In this document: piece after piece, positions 1 through 43,872 of the stretch
Layout: the number at the start of each line of letters is the position of its first letter
How positions within the stretch are numbered: position 1 is the stretch's first letter
Origin: a virus
Lineage: Duplodnaviria > Heunggongvirae > Uroviricota > Caudoviricetes
DNA length: 48,195 bases
Reading direction: 5' to 3' (one strand)
IMG/VR virus record: IMGVR_UViG_2519899780_000006
Position numbers and translations under genes: made by a program
Notes under the pieces: model-generated
What the model was told of the DNA's origin: nothing
The model's database searches: none
What the model saw: the letters and a program-made list of their open reading frames with translations, nothing else

Positions 1-582
1 TTACTCTGCAGGTGAAGTCGGCCACTCAATATCAGGTGCAGTTGATGTATCAACACGGTTCAGCAACACCCGATACTTTTTCCAGGCTTCCAGCAATGAG
101 GTTTCTTCCTCCGTTGCAATTTCCAGATCTGCAGCATCCTGAAGCGGCGCAATATGCTCACTGGCTACCTGCATCAGGTTGTTTTTTGTTTCTTCCGCCT
201 CCCGGATCCGGAACAGTTTTTCTGCTTCCGTATCCTTCACCCAGGCTGTGCCGTTCCACTTCTGAAACTCCCCTTCCGGCGATAACCAGGTAACATTTTC
301 CGGTAACGGACCGAGTTCAGAAATAAATAACTCGTCCCCTGACGCTACGTCATAAACCGTTTTACCCCGATGGTCTTCAACGAGATGCCACGATGCCTCA
401 TCACTGTTGAAAACAGCCACAAAGCCAGCAGGAATATCTGGTGGTGCAATATCGGTACTGTTTGCTGGCAGACCTGTATGAGGCGGAATATATGCGTCAC
501 CTTCACCAATAAATTCATTAGTTCCGGCCAGCAGATTATAAATTTTTATGGTCCGTGGTTGTTCACTCATTCTGAATGCCAT
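1..582 (-). CDS. tfa: Tail fiber assembly protein Tfa
   Basis: 193-aa ORF beginning [24 protein letters not shown], near-identical in my recollection to lambda Tfa; stop codon at window positions 1-3; follows stf as in lambda. Confidence 0.9.
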
Positions 583-4105: not shown

Positions 4106-7100
4106 TCAGCTGATACTGATGCCTGCGGTGGCTTTCTTCATCACCACAACCAGCAAATCGCTGATACTTGCTGTGGGATACCAGTTATTCATCAGCCATG
4201 CTGATACCGAAAACTCCAGCGTCATGTGACCGTGACCGGCAGGCATATCAATAACGCCACTGTAAATCAGCGTATTATCCAGCGCGGTACGGTTATAAAT
4301 TTCAGCACCGTTTTTCCGCACTATCAGACGGCATGAGGAGTAAATATCAGTATGCTCTCTCTTATGCTTAGCGCCACTGAATGCCACTGCCGGAATAACA
4401 ATCTGCCGGTCAAACGGCTGATCGTCATAAACCCTGACGGTAATGGTCCCTGATGGCCACCGCTCCGGTGCACGGGAATCCCGGGGGAAAGCTTTGCCCA
4501 CTGTTTTAACGAGATCGCCTTCAATCTGGTTCGCGGACAGTTTTCCCAGAACCCGACAGTTCTCGTTAATCGTGACGTTGTTGAGCGTCCCGGAATTCGC
4601 ATTCACGTTACCGCTGATATCAGCATTTCTTGCGGTCAGCCTGCCCTCCGGCGTCAGGGAAAACGTCGGGGGATTGCCGGACGAGGTGATACTCACCGCA
4701 AACAGCCGCTTCAGGAACACATCGTTCATGAACAACTGATTCCCCTGCGCCACAAATAACGGCGTGGTGTTGCCGTCCTCCGGGTTAATCATCGCAATAC
4801 GGTCAGCCAGCAGCAGTATGTTGCTCAGGGGCTGGCCATCAGTATCCTCAATCCCCGCTCCAATACCGGCAACATAGGGTATGCCATTTTTTGTTTTCTG
4901 TACCTTCAGCATGTAAAGTGCAGCAAGGTCATCATTTGTGTCCTTCTGCACGCGCTGTATCTGCTGTATGGTGGCGCTCTGGTCCTCCAGCGTTTTACTG
5001 ACCGTCTGTGTGATTTCATTGCGGGTTTCGGTGATGGTGGTCTTCATCTCCGCCATCTCATCCGCAAGCTGGCTGTTGTCTATCAGCTCCCACAGCCCCT
5101 GAGCCAGATGCAGTTTTCCTATTTTTTCCCGAAACAGCCCCAGATACCCTTCTGCATCATTGCTGGCCCGTCCACTGGCTTCAACAAAAGCAGATTTCCC
5201 CACCAGGTTAACGCTGCGTACATAAAACCAGAAATCCTTCCCGGGCTTAATGTGCGGGCCGGAGACAGTCCACTGACTGCCAGTCCCCAGATAACGGGCA
5301 GATTTTTCCACCTGTGCCGTGTTCGTGATGCGTTTTTCTGAGAACCAGAATTCAAACTGTACCGTCGGGTCATACACCGCCAGCACCGGTACCGCTGTTA
5401 TCTGAAAATACCCCGGCGTCAGTTCAATGGTGGCGGGTTTTGCTGGCGCGTTAATCCGGAAGGTGGTGGTGGCCGGTTCGCCCTGCTGGCCATAACTGTT
5501 AATTGCCCTGACTGTCAGGGTGTATTCCCCGAGCGGCAGACCACTGAAACGATGCTCTGTATCCGCAGTGATAGCGGTGGTCACCAGACGGCTGTCTTCT
5601 CCGCTTCCGCTGGTCAGTCGCAGACTGAAGCGCACCCCCTTCACCACCCGCGGCGTGTCCCATTTCGCCTGTGCCAGATACTGGCCGTCAGCTGCGCTCA
5701 CCTCCACCGTCAGGTGCTGCACTGCCGGTGGGATGACGCTGTTCAGGGAGCCTGACTGCGGCTCAAAGCGGGCACCGTTATCCACGATGGCTTCTTTTTC
5801 CGGTACGTGCTGCACCGCCGTGATGGCAAAGGTGCCGTCCGTGTTTTCCCGGACGGAGACACAGCGGAACAGGCGACGGCGCAGTGACGGCAGGGAGAGT
5901 CCCCACACCCCGTATGTCTCCACACCATCAGGCAGGGTACTGACCTGTATCCGGTCCGGCGCGGGGTGTGCGGTGATGTCCACACTCACCGGCTTACCGC
6001 TGCCGTTAATCAGGTTCACCGCCGATGTACCTGTCTCCGGCAGGGTAACCTCACGGTCCAGCGTCAGGGTGCGGGTGGCAGCATCAATGGACAGGATACG
6101 TCCGCCGGTCATGGTCCCGGCATAGTCGTTATCACAGATTTCAATAATGTCACCGGGTGTGTGACGCAGCCCCTGTGACCCGAGCGTGAAGTCCACCGTC
6201 TGCGTTTCCAGCAGTTCGGTCTTTATCACCCACAGCCCGGCACGGTGGGCCTGACCGCGGCTGGTACAGCCGAACGCGTCCATCTTCAGCAGGTTGCGTC
6301 CGTAGCGCAGTATGGCTTCCGGGTCTTCCACCAGTTCCGTGGAGGTCTGCCAGCCGTTCTGCGGGTCGGTGTAATTCACCTCCACCGCCGTGTGCCGGTC
6401 CTTCAGGGCACTGAAGCTGTAGCGGAACCCCACGCCGTTATCATCCACCACCACATCGCTGTTGGTGTACGGCCACACCACATCCGACTGGCGGTCCTGA
6501 ACGAACGTCAGCGTCTGGCCGTTCCATACCGGCATACAGCGCATCGCCGAGCAGAAATCACTGAGAACGTCCCACGCCTTACGCTGTTGTGCCAGGTACG
6601 CATTAAAGGTCATCCGCGGCTCTGTGCCCCCGAAACCATCCGGGACCGTCTGGTCGCAGTACTGCCCGATGGCATACAGCGCCCACTTGTCCACATCCGC
6701 CGCCCCCAGACGTTTTCCCATGCCGTAGCGCGGGTGAGTCAGCATGTCCCACAGACACCAGGCCGGGTTGTTGCTGTATGCCGGTTTCAGACTGCCGTCC
6801 CAGATACCACTGTACGTGCGTTTTTCCGGGTCATAGTTTGACGGCACCTGGATGATGCGACCGCGGATATGGTAGTTCACCGTCATCTGCTGGCCGCCGA
6901 ACTGCTCCGCATCCACCTGCAGCCCCACAATGGCCGTGTTCGGGTAGCACTGTTTCACATCGATAATTTCAGTGTACGATGACCAGAGCGTTCTGTTCTG
7001 CAACTGGTCCGTGGTGCTGTCCGCCGTCTCCCTGACCATCCGGATGTTAAAGGGCCGGGGCGGCAGATTATCCAGAATCACCGAGGCCAGGAACTGTGAG

Positions 7101-23709: not shown

Positions 23710-23895
23710 ATGTCATCAAAGAACAGAACGCGCAGAACAACAACCCGCAACATCCGATTTCCAAACCAGATGATTGAACAAATTAACATCGCTCTTGATC
23801 TGAAAGGTTCAGGAAACTTTTCAGCGTGGGTTATTGAAGCCTGCAGAAGAAGGCTGTCAACAGAGAGTTCGGGTATGAATTACATAATTAAGTAA
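23710..23895 (+). CDS. Small basic protein, possible ribbon-helix-helix (YlcI-like position)
   Basis: 61 aa, MSSKNRTRRTTTRNIRFPNQMIEQINIALDLKG; on the strand opposite the late genes, in an AT-rich stretch next to cos. Confidence 0.4.
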   Translation: MSSKNRTRRTTTRNIRFPNQMIEQINIALDLKGSGNFSAWVIEACRRRLSTESSGMNYIIK

Positions 23896-24518
23896 CATGG
23901 TGTTCACAGAACACGCAGTTACCGGACACATCAGTTTTCCATTCGCTCCCTGGCAGTACAGGCTTCCCCTCTGACGGGATAGCCTGAAAAAATAACACAG
24001 AAAATTATTTGTTATAATTAATATAACTTACTCAAAAAAAAGCGACGAGAAAATCAGCATCAACGAACAATAAGCGCCAATACGTGATAACAAATGGCAG
24101 CCATATTTATCTGCAGTATAAGCAATGGACAGGATAACCACACCAGAAACCGTCAGCATAAAATCCATTTGAACTTCCCCGGACAAAATCGACTCATCTA
24201 AAGATTTACAGCTCTTTTTATTATCAATATGTTAAAAGTAAAATAAACAGATGTTCAATAACACGAATACAAAAACGTGCTGAAATTCAATGAATCCATT
24301 TCTGTGTCATCAATTAATAGTGATAAACATCCGGCTTCTTCCACCATCGCACCGGACAGGCGACTATGAGGGGACAACGCCGCGCTCCGTTAACGCGGTA
24401 AACCCCGGTGTGTATCGTTTTTGATTATCCCCGCACACTCGCGCAGAGGAGTCTCCCTGTCGGGCTGCGGTCTCTGTTAATGCGGGGATACGGCGACAAT
24501 ACCGCGCATCAGCAAAAC

Positions 24519-29114: not shown

Positions 29115-29341
29115 GTCCATAAGAAAGCCCCTCCGGAGAGGGGCTGGAGAGTGGCGCTATGTGCCATTGCATGGTGCCGGGTGCCTCCCGGTGAATTCAG
29201 TACCAGCACCTGAATCCGCGATTATCCCATATACCTACTCGCTGATTGCCCCTCCGCACAGGGGGATTCACCATGCCAGTTTCTTTTAACAAACTCCCCG
29301 CAAAACAGACAACTGTCAACCGTCTGAATTGTGAGACATTT

Positions 29342-29381: not shown

Positions 29382-29458
29382 TGGCGCGTTGTACTGGATT
29401 CGAACCAGTGACCGATTGCTTAGAAGGCAATTGCTCTGTCCGGCTGAGCTAACAACGC
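29382..29458 (-). tRNA. argO: tRNA-Arg (anticodon UCU)
   Basis: 77-nt cloverleaf folded by hand: acceptor GCGTTGT/ACAACGC, D stem GCTC/GAGC, anticodon loop CUUCUAA, T loop TTCGAAT, 3' CCA encoded. Confidence 0.85.
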
Positions 29459-29474
29459 AGGATACAGATAATGA

Positions 29475-29548
29475 ACCGCCTTCGGGGACCCGAACTCCGC
29501 GCAACCAGCTTCGAAGGCTGGCGCTCTATCCTGATGAGCTAATGGCGG
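29475..29548 (-). tRNA. argN: tRNA-Arg (anticodon UCG), slightly imperfect
   Basis: About 74 nt; anticodon loop CUUCGAA; T loop TTCGGGT; one mismatch each in acceptor and T stems; no encoded CCA. Ends approximate. Confidence 0.6.
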
Positions 29549-29555
29549 TATGTGA

Positions 29556-29631
29556 TGGTGGCCCTTGCTGGATTTGAACCAGCGACCTGGCGATTATGAG
29601 TCGCTCGCTCTCACCACTGAGCTAAAGGGCC
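29556..29631 (-). tRNA. ileZ: tRNA-Ile2 (anticodon CAU), ileX/ileZ-like
   Basis: 76 nt reading GGCCCTTTAGCTCAGTGGTGAGAGCGAGCGACTCATAATCGC...CCACCA, close to E. coli ileX as recalled. Confidence 0.85.
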
Positions 29632-31304: not shown

Positions 31305-32126
31305 CTATCGCGTTACCCTCTTTAACTGCCGCTCCGCCCATGCCTCTTCAATGTCAAACCGAACCACCAACGTATCGTAAAAGCGTTTCACTGATTTTTT
31401 CCACGTATCAAGCGTGATAGCACTCGTCACTTTGCATATGGCATTAAATGCCTCCGTTGATGGTAGTCTTTCACAGCCACGACCACCACAACGCTGGCAG
31501 TCTCTGATAACAGGCATACCACGTTTTACCGACTCTTCACGATGAATGGCGACACCACGCCCACGGCAATCCTTACAGGCGGTGGAAACCTCACCCTTTC
31601 CGCCACACTCCGGACAGGCAACTTTTACCACCTCCCTGACTTTTTTCCATTCTTCCCAGTAAGACGGATACACACCTTTCGTACACTTTGCCCATACCGG
31701 CGGCTTACCATCCGGATACTGGATCTTGTTTGTAAAAACCTCGCTTTCAATAAATTTTTTTCCGTGACAGCAGGAGCACTGTTTTTTGCTCGCCGCGCTA
31801 CGGGCATAATCTTCAAACGCATACGAAGCCATAATACGCATCACTGCCGGTTTTATTTCTGCCGGGAGTTTTCTTAACGCCGCCACGCGATCACACCGCC
31901 TGAGTGCATATTCTGTCAGCAATTCTGTTGCCCGCTCTCTGTCATTCATACTAATGCCCATTTTCCCAAGGAACGCAGAAAACCCCATCTCAGCCCGATT
32001 CTGTGTCATGCCCTGCGCGGCCATCACATCAGTGATACTCAGCGCATCTTTCGACGTTGAGGCCGATGCATCAGTCAGGCCGGGGGATTTTGGGGAGTAG
32101 TATTTCGGTAAATCTTCCAGTTTCAT
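31305..32126 (-). CDS. Q: Late antiterminator, Q-like
   Basis: 273 aa with several CxxC pairs; sits upstream of the pR'/tR' candidates, the tRNA cluster and the lysis genes. Confidence 0.65.
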   Translation of the reverse strand: MKLEDLPKYYSPKSPGLTDASASTSKDALSITDVMAAQGMTQNRAEMGFSAFLGKMGISMNDRERATELLTEYALRRCDRVAALRKLPAEIKPAVMRIMASYAFEDYARSAASKKQCSCCHGKKFIESEVFTNKIQYPDGKPPVWAKCTKGVYPSYWEEWKKVREVVKVACPECGGKGEVSTACKDCRGRGVAIHREESVKRGMPVIRDCQRCGGRGCERLPSTEAFNAICKVTSAITLDTWKKSVKRFYDTLVVRFDIEEAWAERQLKRVTR

Positions 32127-33839: not shown

Positions 33840-34006
33840 CTGTTTTCTCTGCTGGCGCAGCAGGTGCCAGTTGTTCAGGCTGACGGATGGATTGTAAACC
33901 AGAACGACCAGAAAAAACAAAACCCGCCGAAGCGGGTTAAGTGCGGGTGCGTTGAGGATGCCTGACACATCAGCGGTGGCGAGGGATTTCTCCCCCGCCG
34001 GGTCTC

Positions 34007-34162
34007 TTACTCCTCAGGTTCGTAAGCTGTGAAGACAGCGACCTCCGTCTGGCCGGTTCGGATTCGTACCTCGCAGAGGTCTTTCCTCGTTACCAGTGCC
34101 GTCACTATGACGGTTAAACAGATGACGATCAGGGCGATTAACATCGCCTTTTGCTGCTTCAT
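34007..34162 (-). CDS. hokD: Hok/Gef-family type I toxin
   Basis: 51-aa ORF MKQQKAMLIALIVICLTVIVTALVTRKDLCEVRIRTGQTEVAVFTAYEPEE, hand-translated; absent from the ORF track (under 60 aa); matches HokD/RelF as recalled. Confidence 0.85.
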   Translation of the reverse strand: MKQQKAMLIALIVICLTVIVTALVTRKDLCEVRIRTGQTEVAVFTAYEPEE

Positions 34163-34420
34163 AGCCTGCTTCTCCTTGACCTTTCGGTCCGTAAGAGGCT
34201 AATCTCTATGTGTCGCATAGATATGGCCTCAGATTAATGTTAAGCGTCTTGCAGGACGCGTAATGTTAACTGGGGCTTTTCTCTATCTGCCTTTTGGTGT
34301 TCATGCCTGAGACAGATAGCCTCAAGCACCCGCAGTCATTCTACTTAACTAAGATTTCCCCGCAAACCGTTTTTGTCCGGCACAGTAAATATCCAACTAA
34401 ACCAATGGCGTTCGCTGTAT

Positions 34421-34600
34421 TTACCGCCAGTATTCAATGCACATGACCGCCATGAACACCCCTAAAAAAAGGGCATTTATATATCCAAATATTAATATCA
34501 AAACATCAACTTTTTCCATATACCTTGCTGTGAAGATGATGGGCATACATGATACGAACAACCAGAACGCAACAAACAAAAACTGCAATGCGTTTTTCAT
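34421..34600 (-). CDS. Hypothetical 59-aa two-TM membrane protein
   Basis: MKNALQFLFVAFWLFVSCMPIIFTARYMEKVDVLILIFGYINALFLGVFMAVMCIEYWR; AGGAGG 5-6 nt upstream of ATG 34598-34600; inside a markedly AT-rich islet. Confidence 0.45.
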   Translation of the reverse strand: MKNALQFLFVAFWLFVSCMPIIFTARYMEKVDVLILIFGYINALFLGVFMAVMCIEYWR

Positions 34601-34829
34601 TATTCCTCCTACAATCAATGTGCAATTACATTTAAACACACCTCAATTTGGCCGGACATATAAATATCTAAACCAGAAAAAATCACTTACATAGCGTTAC
34701 AAACTCTTTAGTCTAAATATTCATCGTAAAACATTCCCCATACTTATCAGCCCGTTCTGCGCCAGGTAGCTCATTGCCTTATCTGGGAATCTGTAATCAG
34801 GTTTCCGGATGCTGGTGGATTTTCGCGTT

Positions 34830-35087
34830 TTAGTTGTTCATAAAAGTGCACAGCTTTAACCAGTTCTTCTGATGTAACCGGGACTGGCGGGGCAGTGAAT
34901 AAGGCCTGAATTTCATAGTTCGGCCTGTCGTTACAATCCTCTTTTTTCGGTACATATTTCCAGTCACCAGACCACTACTTCCCCTGAAAGTCCGTAACGC
35001 CTTTTTTTTCACGTAGCGATATCGCCATGCCACTGTTTTTGCTTGTCCCGCCGTTTCATGCCCTTCCTGATAATTAACCTCGCTCAT
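34830..35087 (-). pseudogene. Probable decayed fragment of an ea22-like gene
   Basis: Begins MSEVNYQEGHETAGQ, like the N-termini of the two Ea22-like genes, then becomes basic low-complexity; a T8 homopolymer lies inside it. Confidence 0.3.
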
Positions 35088-37201: not shown

Positions 37202-37951
37202 TCACTCTCCTTTGATGCGAATGCCAGCGGCGCGGATTGCAGCGATGACTTCAGAAACTTTGTATGCCATTACCGTTTGGTAATCATCGTGAAAATCTGT
37301 TCGATGAAGCATGCTGCTACGTTCCGGGAGCGATATTTCCCGAGCATCCAGTTCCTTAACGCGTTCCTCCAGTTCGTAGACCCTGCATTGTTCTCTATCA
37401 TCAATCAGATATAACCCAAGACATTCGCTTTCTACCCAACCGCCAAAATCATGATCGTAACGCTCACATGAAAACTCACCGTCACCGTCCTTTGTTGGAA
37501 TGGTGTAACTATCTAATGGGCCACCATATGTCGGCACATTCCCCAATGTTGGATGCTCAATCCACATGAAAAATGCACGTCCGGTTATTGGGCAAATATC
37601 TGGCCGCCATTGGTTACGAACAGCCTTGGTTTCGGATAATTCTTCAGCGTGTTGTTTTACTTCCTCAAGCTCAACTCTCAGCTTCCCTACCGTTAGCGCA
37701 ATATCCTCGTTCTCCTGGTCGCGGCGTTTGATGTATTGCTGGTTCCTTTCCCGTTCATCCAGTAGTGCCAGCACGGTTTCTGGTCCGGTCAGAAATTTGA
37801 AGGCATTGAGCGCATCAATATCCACACCGTAATCTTTAAGTTCCTGTTCACTTAACAAATCATCATCAGTTGGCAACATTAACAGGCGTTCCATTGCTGG
37901 AATTGCACGTTCTGCTGCCTCACGCAGTGCCTGGTAATTAATTTCGCTCAC
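37202..37951 (-). CDS. Ea22-like protein (paralogue 1)
   Basis: 249 aa; N-terminus MSEINYQALREAAERA shared with the next gene; coiled-coil middle. Confidence 0.5.
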   Translation of the reverse strand: MSEINYQALREAAERAIPAMERLLMLPTDDDLLSEQELKDYGVDIDALNAFKFLTGPETVLALLDERERNQQYIKRRDQENEDIALTVGKLRVELEEVKQHAEELSETKAVRNQWRPDICPITGRAFFMWIEHPTLGNVPTYGGPLDSYTIPTKDGDGEFSCERYDHDFGGWVESECLGLYLIDDREQCRVYELEERVKELDAREISLPERSSMLHRTDFHDDYQTVMAYKVSEVIAAIRAAGIRIKGE

Positions 37952-38634
37952 TGGTTGCCTCCTTTGCGAAGCTGGGCAGCAAAGTCAACTAACCACTCAG
38001 TCATTTCAACCTTCCCTACCAGGTCTGAACCAGGGTGCATACAGCAATCACTCTGCGCCGCTTTGAAATCCTTATACTCATATTCTTGGGCCACCAGATT
38101 TTTTGCAGCTTCTATAGCAGCATCCACCCCCTGCGCCCGGACTTCAGCCAGGAAAGCATCAGTGGTTGGCGTTTCAGGTATCTGTCTCCTCATCCGTTCT
38201 ATTGCATGATAGAACCCGAAGTCTTCCGCGAGAGATACGTCATCCATATTGTCATTGTCATCCTCAATATCCCGTGATTTTGGAATTGCAGACTTTATTC
38301 CCGCATTCTCAGCAGCCAGCGCCGCGCACTTGGCCTCAAGAGCGGCAACCACTTCCTGATGGTCTTTGTACTTAACGTATGAGCCGGAGATGTCATCACC
38401 TTCGGTGTTTAGCCATGCGTCATTGCAATTCACTGCGTAGGTTCTGATGCTCATGTTGATGCTCTCCCGCCCCTGACAGACGCCAGGCCAGTCAATAAAG
38501 TATCCGCAATGCCTACCCTCAGACGTGCGCGCAGGATAAATGCCGTTATGACCCGGCAAAATATATGCTACCCATTCATCTTGCGTTGCCTGTTCCGCCG
38601 CCTCGCGCAGTTCTTGATAGTCAATCTTGCTCAC
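37948..38634 (-). CDS. Ea22-like protein (paralogue 2)
   Basis: 228 aa; N-terminus MSKIDYQELREAAEQA; C-terminal segment QELREAAEQA repeats the N-terminal motif. Confidence 0.5.
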   Translation of the reverse strand: MSKIDYQELREAAEQATQDEWVAYILPGHNGIYPARTSEGRHCGYFIDWPGVCQGRESINMSIRTYAVNCNDAWLNTEGDDISGSYVKYKDHQEVVAALEAKCAALAAENAGIKSAIPKSRDIEDDNDNMDDVSLAEDFGFYHAIERMRRQIPETPTTDAFLAEVRAQGVDAAIEAAKNLVAQEYEYKDFKAAQSDCCMHPGSDLVGKVEMTEWLVDFAAQLRKGGNQ

Positions 38635-40559: not shown

Positions 40560-40985
40560 TTAGTGCATCACCACAGCATTCCCTGCCGGGCCGCCGCGAT
40601 TCATCTGGTCATACAAAACAACCGCTGACGCAACAAAATCATCGACATCCTTCACCAGCCGATCCCTCCGTTCGACGATCTCACGGTAATATTCAGAACT
40701 GTGGCTGCGCATACGGGCCACCAGCAAAGGCGGCATCGCCTTTTCGATCGCCGGTAACAGAGCCTGCATTTTTTCAACAGCATCAGGGGTGTCTTTATCC
40801 AGCCAACGGAAAATTTTCTGGGTATTACGGGCCAGGGCTTCCGGATGGCTGTCGTCATACAGTTCCGGGAACGTCATTCCCAGCTCGAAATACGCTTTGG
40901 TAATTTTCGCAGCCGGTACTTTTTCGCCGTCCGGATGCGCCCAGGCATTCATTGCCATGCGGATGTGTTCATGCTTGATTTTCAT
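40560..40985 (-). CDS. YdaT-like protein in the CII position
   Basis: 141 aa, MKIKHEHIRMAMNAWAHPDGEKVPAAKITKAYFELGMTF; resembles Rac YdaT as I recall it. Confidence 0.5.
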   Translation of the reverse strand: MKIKHEHIRMAMNAWAHPDGEKVPAAKITKAYFELGMTFPELYDDSHPEALARNTQKIFRWLDKDTPDAVEKMQALLPAIEKAMPPLLVARMRSHSSEYYREIVERRDRLVKDVDDFVASAVVLYDQMNRGGPAGNAVVMH

Positions 40986-41244
40986 GAATCACCCCCGCCT
41001 CTGGTTGTGTGTTAGCCTGATACTCGACAGGTAAGCCGTCGGTTGGGTTGGGATAAGTACTGCCATCAATCTCGTGCGGAGTTACTATCCAGCCTGTTGC
41101 TTCGCACCAGCGTAAAATTTTTTTCCCCGTAAGTTTCGCCCGTCCGGTAATGACATGGCTTACCATCCCTTGGGTTACCCCAACAATTTCAGCAAAATGC
41201 TTCTGAGTTATACCGGAATGATGCAAATATTCTCCAAGATTCAT
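40969..41244 (-). CDS. Cro-like HTH regulator (YdaS-like)
   Basis: 91 aa; HTH ITQKHFAEIVGVTQGMVSHVI; divergent from the repressor gene. Confidence 0.6.
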   Translation of the reverse strand: MNLGEYLHHSGITQKHFAEIVGVTQGMVSHVITGRAKLTGKKILRWCEATGWIVTPHEIDGSTYPNPTDGLPVEYQANTQPEAGVIHENQA

Positions 41245-43306: not shown

Positions 43307-43872
43307 TTTATCCTCCATTGAGGTTACTGGTTGAGAATGGAGACCTCTCGTGACAGCGTGTGGTCGTGCGCCGGACACGGATAAGAATCCGGCACTGACA
43401 GTTTACTGAAAGGATATTTCCCTGAAAAGTCAGACCATAACGCGAAAGCGCACGGCGAGGTAGCTGGTTCATAGATAGCCTGTCGTTAAATTTTCGTCGA
43501 CCGTGCGCTTCCGGTTGTGGCAATCCGCGAAATGGCGCGGCGGTAAGTATGGCGGGGTTATTCCTTCCCCCGTTGAGGACACCGGGTTGTCAGGTTGGCC
43601 ATACGCTTAAGTGACAACCCCGCTGCAACGCCCTCTGTTATCAATTTTCTGGTGACGTTTGGCGGTATCAGTTTTACTCCGTGACTGCTCTGCCGCCCTT
43701 TTTAAAGTGAATTTTGTGATGTGGTGAATGCGGCTGAGCGCACGCGGAACAGTTAAAACCAAAAACAGTGTTATGGGTGGATTCTCTGTATCCGGCGTTA
43801 ATTGTTAACTGGTTAACGTCACCTGGAGGCACCAGGCACCGCATCACAAAATTCATTGTTGAGGACGCGATA

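Follow-up and report, generated by a model that had tools for sequence, protein, structure and literature searches.

A two-branch family of small, predicted inner-membrane proteins encoded upstream of hok in Escherichia coli and Shigella prophage DNA

Does the AT-rich DNA located immediately upstream of hok, a toxin gene, in a lambdoid prophage encode a genuine protein, and is it a recent foreign acquisition? The question is raised by a stretch of 48,195 nucleotides, the IMG/VR virus record IMGVR_UViG_2519899780_000006, which is a complete Rac/Qin-like lambdoid prophage of Escherichia coli and is referred to below, at its full length, as the window. A preliminary description of the sequence had singled out positions 34380–34700 as far more AT-rich than the rest, which is borne out (36.1% GC compared with 51.8% for the window), and had placed there, next to hok, a small protein of 59 aa with two transmembrane segments and an AGGAGG Shine–Dalgarno (SD) sequence. 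The open reading frame (ORF) and the SD can be read directly, two helices appear in the AlphaFold2 model, the gene does adjoin hok, and the frame is conserved in a diverged paralogue. Comparison with this paralogue provides strong evidence that the gene is real and has been under long-term purifying selection. The AT-rich islet contains the following elements:

34379–34720, minus strand: the AT-rich islet, made up of the 59-codon gene with its SD and of a spacer on either side, delimited by comparison with phage vB_EcoS-689R5
34601–34720, minus strand: untranslated upstream spacer, 120 nt, 30.8% GC, in which no promoter-like site was found
34605–34610, minus strand: SD sequence AGGAGG, 4 nt (AATA) before the ATG, from direct reading
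34421–34600, minus strand: 59-codon gene of a predicted two-helix inner-membrane protein (branch A), ATG at 34600–34598, stop codon at 34423–34421
34464–34470: A7/T7 homopolymer within the gene (codons 44–46), the site of most frameshifted protein-database variants

The 59-aa product is MKNALQFLFVAFWLFVSCMPIIFTARYMEKVDVLILIFGYINALFLGVFMAVMCIEYWR. The program-made list of ORFs begins this frame at GTG 34639 (72 aa), a start without a usable SD. According to a composition-based estimate, the chance that a perfect SD, a well-spaced ATG and a 59-codon frame occur together in 342 bp of 36% GC is about 1e-4.

Evidence for coding

A word-index search, made before the HMMER search, returned near-identical E. 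coli and Shigella sequences only. Using HMMER against 1.84 billion cluster representatives, one diverged paralogue was found, MRKILMYLCISIWIVISCVPIILTSEYLTEASIMALMFGHANALCIGVFISIIYIECWR, which also has 59 aa and is 41% identical over residues 1–59, with no insertions or deletions (indels). The window sequence and its close relatives are referred to as branch A and the paralogue as branch B; the branch-B gene is preceded by a ribosome-binding site AGGGA, with a 6-nt spacer before the ATG. The islet can be aligned over its full length with a branch-B locus (contig L206) at about 60% identity. Within this alignment the 177 coding bases are free of indels, while the flanks contain several.

The differences between the branches are distributed over codon positions 1, 2 and 3 as 25, 16 and 31. 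Nei–Gojobori estimates gave proportions of synonymous and nonsynonymous differences (pS and pN) of 0.71 and 0.33 and a ratio of nonsynonymous to synonymous divergence (dN/dS) of about 0.21 (z-test, Z about 4.3), with synonymous sites saturated. When alignment columns were shuffled, both sequences remained stop-free in only 13 of 20,000 trials (p ~6e-4), and amino acid identity, 24 residues in the real alignment, averaged 18.6 ± 2.6 (p = 0.027). Of the six frames, only the 59-codon one stays open in both branches; the other five carry 2–12 stops. Taken together, the uninterrupted frame, the low dN/dS, the outcome of the shuffling and the disruption of the other frames argue for long-term purifying selection on the protein; since the frame is conserved in a diverged paralogue, we regard the question of a chance ORF as settled. 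An 85-aa ORF on the plus strand at 34437–34694, antisense to the gene and annotated as ‘hornerin’ in ON470612 and ON470619, has stops in branch B and looks spurious.

The predicted protein

The product is predicted to be a hydrophobic two-helix protein forming a helical hairpin in the inner membrane, with a short periplasmic loop. AlphaFold2, run on the single sequence, places the helices at residues 3–24 and 31–58 with a mean predicted local distance difference test (pLDDT) score of 84. The grand average of hydropathy (GRAVY) is 1.31 for the window protein and about 1.3 in both branches. The N-terminus is basic in both (MK or MRK), the branch-B loop is acidic (SEYLTEAS) and both C-termini have the form E-x-W-R; by the positive-inside rule, these features favour a hairpin with both termini in the cytoplasm (N-in/C-in).

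In all nine aligned sequences, M1, L5, L8, W13, S17, C18, P20, I21, I22 and T24 are invariant in the first half of the protein, and L36, F38, G39, N42, A43, L44, G47, E56, W58 and R59 in the second. The small-residue face G39-x3-A43-x3-G47 on helix 2 opposes S17-C18-x-P20 on helix 1. Faces of this type are typically found where helices pack in oligomers or where a protein docks on a partner, and the 59-aa protein may do one or the other.

Association with hok/sok

The order of the genes in the two branches indicates how long the 59-aa gene has accompanied hok. The relevant elements are the following:

34338–34366, minus strand: inferred hok promoter, from sequence reading (−35 TTTGCG/TTGCGG at about 34366–34360, −10 TAGAAT at 34343–34338)
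34160–34331, minus strand: hok mRNA leader and antisense sok region (Rfam RF01794, 106.7 bits, E = 2e-23)
34007–34162, minus strand: hok toxin gene, 51 aa (Pfam HOK_GEF, E = 1.2e-23; hokD in RefSeq at an identical locus)
L206 5001–5180 and 5233–5310: branch-B gene and hok fragment
L207 (strain NC101) about 6151–6330: branch-B gene

The inferred promoter is located just 5′ of the Rfam match to the hok leader, in sequence that is also common to loci lacking the islet. All islet-bearing branch-A loci with enough sequence run on into the hok leader. In branch B, a hok remnant lies 50–80 nt past the stop codon of the 59-aa gene and is about 80% identical to hok codons ~24–51; the hok promoter, the leader and the N-terminal half have been deleted there, yet the 59-aa ORF is kept. 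Both branches are thus located upstream of hok, and, because synonymous sites between them are saturated, the order of the 59-aa gene followed by hok predates the split of the branches. Judging from these loci, the gene travels as a unit with hok/sok, invariably just ahead of the hok promoter, in an association that is old and tight. In NC101, branch B is situated where prophages attach at ttcA, flanked by fragments of integrase and DUF1627 genes on one side and by a decayed ABC-permease gene adjoining uspF on the other. On the IMG/VR contig L206, cdtB and cdtC are found about 1.5 kb upstream of branch B.

Expression and possible role

Consensus scans of the minus strand from 37500 to 34300 found no sigma-70-like promoter and no intrinsic terminator, and a relaxed scan of 34900–34560 found nothing. 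One terminator-like hairpin was located after hok (33921–33938, minus strand); it is the only one on this strand between 37500 and 33800. Given that neither a promoter nor a terminator belonging to the 59-aa gene itself was found, it is probably transcribed as part of the early-right operon, on induction or infection. The plus strand within the islet has no Rfam match, promoter-like site or terminator, and so bears no sign of an antisense RNA. As far as can be judged from these scans, the layout of a toxin–antitoxin system of type I, with a cis antisense RNA having its own promoter and terminator, is not found in the islet. The same applies to the promoter and terminator of the classic moron layout, though the presence or absence of the segment among relatives is as expected of a moron.

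A precedent for the timing is provided by hokW of prophage Sp5, which is produced in a RecA-dependent manner after mitomycin C and brings both growth arrest and the release of phage forward in time (PMC8621323). For the 59-aa gene, the series of events that we infer, from the timing of expression and the topology to oligomerisation and any activity as a toxin or in exclusion, would be as follows. On prophage induction or phage infection, the protein would be made at about the time when Hok is made and would insert into the inner membrane. There it would self-associate, or dock on another membrane protein, through the G39-x3-A43-x3-G47 face with S17-C18-x-P20, and it might then serve as an accessory protein active at the membrane, with a part, for instance, in the arrest of growth, the timing of lysis or exclusion; it might also tune Hok or regulate a host membrane protein. 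The explanation as a whole, that of a genuine hok-linked gene of the early operon encoding an inner-membrane hairpin with an accessory activity at the membrane, is given a probability of roughly 0.6. Its position by hok, together with the other genes found in the same slot (see below), makes it a lead on how prophages control membrane damage, growth arrest and the timing of lysis.

A number of observations weigh against this explanation. The 4-nt spacing of the SD is among the shortest that are functional. Polymorphism within branch A comprises 10 nonsynonymous changes and 1 synonymous change, no different from neutrality (P = 0.33); the single synonymous site came from a second sample. The protein database contains frameshifted clusters at the A7 run, many of them from automated read-archive assemblies, and branch B survives in the remnant of a dead prophage, where its inheritance may be passive and vertical. 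A consensus scan would miss atypical promoters, which bears on the assignment to the early-right operon. RefSeq leaves branch A uncalled in each of 60 records drawn from across the ranking. As to activity, the window protein gave no lead: it had no match in Pfam (E ≤ 0.1), PHROG, NCBIfam or PADLOC, a profile search of the PDB returned nothing at E ≤ 10, and Foldseek against viral structures (BFVD) returned generic helical hairpins only (best E = 0.9).

Recent variation and the possibility of a relic

The first alternative is that the gene was once functional and now drifts neutrally in prophages and their remnants, remaining open only because little time has passed. The ratio of 10 to 1 and the frameshifted clusters would be expected of such a relic, and two further observations agree with it. 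The SD is weakened to AGGGGG in roughly every second copy (59 of 114 sequences), and branch B, which lies among pseudogenes in a degraded region, is at least 99% identical in 1037 of the 1045 complete E. coli genomes that carry it, as would fit vertical inheritance.

To set against this are 113 IMG/VR loci, which were gathered by a 26-nt anchor outside the ORF and so are not biased to intact copies. The ORF is intact in 112 of them (113/114 sequences including the window), the sole exception having a 1-nt deletion in the A7 run at 34464–34470. Polymorphic sites are fewer in the gene (10 of 180 coding bases) than in its flanks (29 of 239; Fisher p = 0.027). The five common branch-A variants are all located at positions that differ between A and B, two of them (I37M and Y40H) giving the branch-B residue, whereas changes at conserved positions are singletons. 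The islet is also carried by isolated, viable phages (vB_EcoS-640R1, vB_EcoS-813R8 and PhiR42_1). Many of the frameshifted entries stem from automated read-archive assemblies, in which homopolymer errors are common. These patterns make recent constraint within branch A plausible, and we consider the relic explanation unlikely, if worth keeping in view. Were the gene inert, the annotation would still be improved, and the low GC would still be explained by hydrophobic coding and not by foreign origin.

Composition and origin of the islet

The preliminary description had taken the AT-richness of the segment as a sign of recent horizontal insertion. In its full form this amounts to a foreign moron of recent acquisition, with a small membrane protein that the lysogen would produce as a toxin or for superinfection exclusion. 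That the segment is present in some relatives and absent from others is supported by phage vB_EcoS-689R5, which shares with the window both the hok locus and the genes upstream of it but contains 73 bp (L203 2580–2652) in place of the window's 342 bp. Homology between the two stops at window position 34378, on the hok and promoter side (94% identity), and restarts at 34721. The slot occupied by the islet extends from the stop codon of the preceding nin-type gene to the hok promoter, ending about 12 nt before the hok −35 element. The presence of the segment in some hok-bearing phages and its absence from related ones, its very low GC, the small hydrophobic product with a strong SD and the proximity of hok/sok are all as expected of a moron of this kind; the hok/sok type of locus reportedly excludes phage T4 (Pecota and Wood 1996).

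The recency and the foreignness are another matter. The islet as a whole (34379–34720) has 35.4% GC, a value as low being reached in only 0.25% of 342-nt windows (sd 5.7), with flanks at 54% on the hok side and 44% on the other. GC at the three codon positions (GC1, GC2 and GC3) of the ORF is 0.33, 0.27 and 0.50, and GC3 in neighbouring phage genes is 0.27–0.67. Since GC3 of the ORF lies within the range of its neighbours, its low GC comes from hydrophobic codons, with T at the second position; the rest of the islet, 120 + 42 nt, is ordinary AT-rich spacer. The composition thus shows no sign of a foreign mutational background, and it says nothing on the age of the segment. The pairing with hok, older than the A/B split, does not fit a recent arrival. 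No donor emerged, as no relative was found outside E. coli and Shigella, and a promoter and terminator of its own were likewise not found. The homology search that had been proposed yielded the 59-aa paralogue, but no catalogued toxin or exclusion family in Pfam, PHROG, NCBIfam, PADLOC or the PDB, including the PADLOC and Pfam models of small toxins and exclusion proteins. We therefore regard a recent foreign moron as distinctly unlikely.

The RNA folds of both islet spacers are no better than those of shuffled sequences (z −0.8 and −1.2), and the sole Rfam match in the region of the islet is the neighbouring sok/hok leader. A 25-nt direct repeat (34372–34396 and 34647–34671, 72% identical) brackets the SD and the ORF and was considered as an insertion scar; about one such match is expected by chance according to a binomial estimate, and the repeat was therefore rejected as a scar.

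Other genes in the slot upstream of hok

A further alternative is that the protein is a dedicated partner of Hok which, in the membrane, would enhance the toxin's action, time it or confer immunity to it. Both branches of the family adjoin hok, and other prophages have small hydrophobic genes led by an SD in the same slot. These were surveyed in a pool of 197 IMG/VR hok loci, combining scans anchored on the islet and on the hok leader, in which islet-bearing loci are over-represented. The islet is absent from 94 of the 197, and many of these 94 carry another SD-led small hydrophobic ORF in the slot (for example L210 2296–2379, L238 2839–2928, L242 5080–5184 on the minus strand, and L250). The families are as follows:

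F2: 27 aa, MTWPEALTTVGIAMAVALVVYSICRWG; 26 loci analysed; about 1324 of 5426 complete E. coli genomes
F3: 29–30 aa, M(V)LVLKCALAIAAVMAIYCLAVVLMDHLSD; 20 loci analysed; at least 1568 of 5426 complete E. coli genomes
F4: 34 aa, MSDDISLAMEGALAVIAVVGVYCLVVFLMDRLGN; 6 loci; 673 of 5426 complete E. coli genomes, in up to five places per genome, O157:H7 being among the carriers
phrog_3772 protein: 99 aa; 2 loci in the sample

The ratio of synonymous to nonsynonymous polymorphism is 12:14 in the 27-aa family and 7:10 in the 29–30-aa family, amounting to an excess of synonymous change, with a surplus at third positions, which suggests that these two families are real genes as well. The F2–F4 peptides belong to no Pfam or NCBIfam family, and their sequences were not found in the searchable literature. 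The slot genes (the 27-aa MTWPEALTTVGIAMAVALVVYSICRWG, the 29–34-aa peptides ending in ...AVMAIYCLAVVLMDHLSD and the 99-aa protein) resemble the 59-aa gene in position, in their strong SD and in coding for a hydrophobic helix. They differ in having one helix, not two (the 99-aa protein excepted), and have no sequence relationship to the 59-aa protein beyond a short, unproven C-terminal likeness (MAV...C..W[GR]-stop). On the basis of this short resemblance, one may speculate that an internal deletion of the 59-aa gene gave rise to the 27-aa ORF in loci of the 689R5 type.

Several observations speak against a dedicated partner of Hok. In about 25 IMG/VR loci (e.g. L142, L150, L120) and in L002 (PhiR42_1), an insertion sequence (IS) is located exactly at the hok start codon (after AGCAGGCTAT; window 34161/34162), where it evidently inactivates hok, and the 59-codon frame is intact in these loci, as it is in branch B with its truncated hok. 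Many hok loci have no such neighbour, among them those of the K-12 chromosome, such as that of the Qin prophage; hok of plasmid R1 is not known to have one either. The adjacency may simply reflect inheritance of one block. A dedicated Hok partner therefore seems improbable.

A broader proposal is that the slot upstream of hok promoters is dedicated to small inner-membrane proteins of at least four families, paired functionally with Hok. We consider it doubtful, as the pattern may simply reflect the commonness of tiny membrane genes in lambdoid accessory regions. If it were true, a slot protein and Hok would constitute a two-gene membrane module acting at induction, the slot protein tuning the collapse of the membrane brought about by Hok or the holin, and in the 59-aa protein this partner of Hok would have its two-helix form.

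The weakest alternative is a chance ORF in T-rich intergenic DNA, the segment being in fact non-coding (an upstream element of the hok promoter, a region where H-NS binds to it or an unrecognised RNA): a T-rich strand does translate into hydrophobic residues, long ORFs occur on both strands here, the islet abuts the hok −35 region and RefSeq does not call the ORF, but all this is outweighed by the one open frame in a 59%-identical paralogue with its dN/dS of 0.2 and lack of indels, the stops in the antisense ORF, the absence of an Rfam match or of folding beyond shuffled controls and the retention of the ORF in branch B after deletion of the hok promoter, so that it is very improbable.

Comparison with known systems

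As a genuine gene, probably of the early operon, the 59-aa gene can be compared with several kinds of small phage-encoded membrane proteins. It shares with the Hok/Gef type I toxins the small size (about 50 aa in the latter), the inner-membrane location, here a predicted one, and the place in the early-right lambdoid region, and, as with hokW (PMC8621323), it is likely to be made on induction. The 59-aa protein differs in having no HOK_GEF match and two helices instead of one, and no mok-like leader, fold-back mRNA or antisense RNA was detected for its gene.

Exclusion proteins such as T4 Imm and HK97 gp15 are likewise short, hydrophobic, phage-encoded and variably present. The moron HK97 gp15 is expressed from the prophage, whereas the 59-aa gene had neither a promoter nor a terminator to itself in the scans. 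The 59-aa protein matches no Pfam, PHROG or PADLOC model, the comparison with exclusion proteins being made through these libraries only. Two-helix toxins of the GhoT type (type V toxin–antitoxin systems) are close to it in size (about 57–59 aa), have two predicted transmembrane helices and are very hydrophobic. Here too there is no Pfam match, which covers GhoT and OrtT only insofar as the library holds a model for them, and no GhoS-like gene adjoins the 59-aa gene.

Class II holins and pinholins such as S21 share two transmembrane helices, a likely N-in/C-in topology and a small-xxx-small motif. In contrast to a holin gene, the 59-aa gene is located between the replication genes and Q, whereas the lysis cassette lies about 6–9 kb away, past Q; its product ends in EYWR without a basic tail, and neither Pfam and PHROG holin models nor Foldseek provided a lead.

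Distribution and annotation

Of 5426 complete E. coli genomes, 1567 (nearly a third) carry branch A, at an identity never below 95%, and 1045 (about a fifth) carry branch B. The strains with the gene or its paralogue include ST131 EC958, O104:H4 and NC101; K-12 has neither branch. A search of 5.8 billion proteins with a profile built from both branches revealed no third branch and no host besides E. coli and Shigella, a result repeated in a scan of 185,579 species, each represented by one genome. An Asticcacaulis match (27 residues, 41%) was rejected as chance, and matches of branch B and of the profile to DUF4212 and to the small subunit of a sodium symporter (E 0.03–0.08) were rejected as sub-threshold and compositional. 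On the evidence of these searches, the gene belongs to a previously unclassified family of two branches confined to E. coli and Shigella prophage DNA. The family is new, but its kind, small prophage-encoded inner-membrane proteins, is familiar.

Where GenBank submitters have named branch A, the names are ‘hypothetical protein’ or ‘putative membrane protein’; branch B is unannotated in the genome records listed. A full-text search of the literature for the peptide sequence of either branch gave no match. The gene is thus a concrete case of a conserved small membrane protein missed by annotation pipelines.

Gene order around the islet

The early-right region of the window, on the minus strand, has the order cro-like gene, replication genes, nin-type genes, 59-aa gene, hok, DUF968 gene, RusA gene and Q. 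Its main features, with one RNA of the plus strand, are the following:

43647–43698, plus strand: DicF, on the other arm (Rfam, gathering score)
40969–41244, minus strand: cro-like gene with a helix–turn–helix motif
between the cro-like and Ead/Ea22-like genes, minus strand: YdaT-like gene, O-like replication gene and DUF977 gene
37202–38634, minus strand: two intact Ead/Ea22-like genes
between the Ead/Ea22-like genes and the 59-aa gene, minus strand: several small nin-type genes
34812–35087, minus strand: 119-aa gene, 5′ part only, which a deletion has joined to the 3′ remnant of a 114-aa gene; 94% identical to L203 3965 onward
34721–34805, minus strand: 3′ remnant of the 114-aa nin-region gene, with its TGA (34723–34721) at the edge of the islet; 79% identical to L203 2653–2737
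between hok and Q, minus strand: Rem-like gene, DUF968 gene and RusA gene
31305–32126, minus strand: antiterminator Q

The decayed ea22-like fragments that had been reported beside the 59-aa gene turned out to be this deletion fusion of two other small genes, the intact Ead/Ea22 genes being those at 37202–38634. The fusion pseudogene extends over 34771–35087 (minus strand), and the RefSeq note on this stretch reads ‘frameshifted; internal stop’. The deletion that produced it removed the Ea22/EaA-type genes which vB_EcoS-689R5 holds between the 119-aa and 114-aa genes. Mosaic joints in other loci fall in the region of the 3′ remnant, at 34750, 34756 and 34807.

The lowest-GC stretch of the window is not the islet but 23855–24395 (31%), between a small-terminase-like gene and the lysis region. 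Adjoining it is a 61-aa ORF at 23710–23895 (plus strand), which we take, by recognition and not by Pfam comparison, to be YnfO/DUF3950-like. The other Rfam matches at gathering score are an IS009 RNA (41–239, minus strand), the STnc100 small RNA (29115–29305, minus strand) and three tRNA genes downstream of Q (29385–29631, minus strand).

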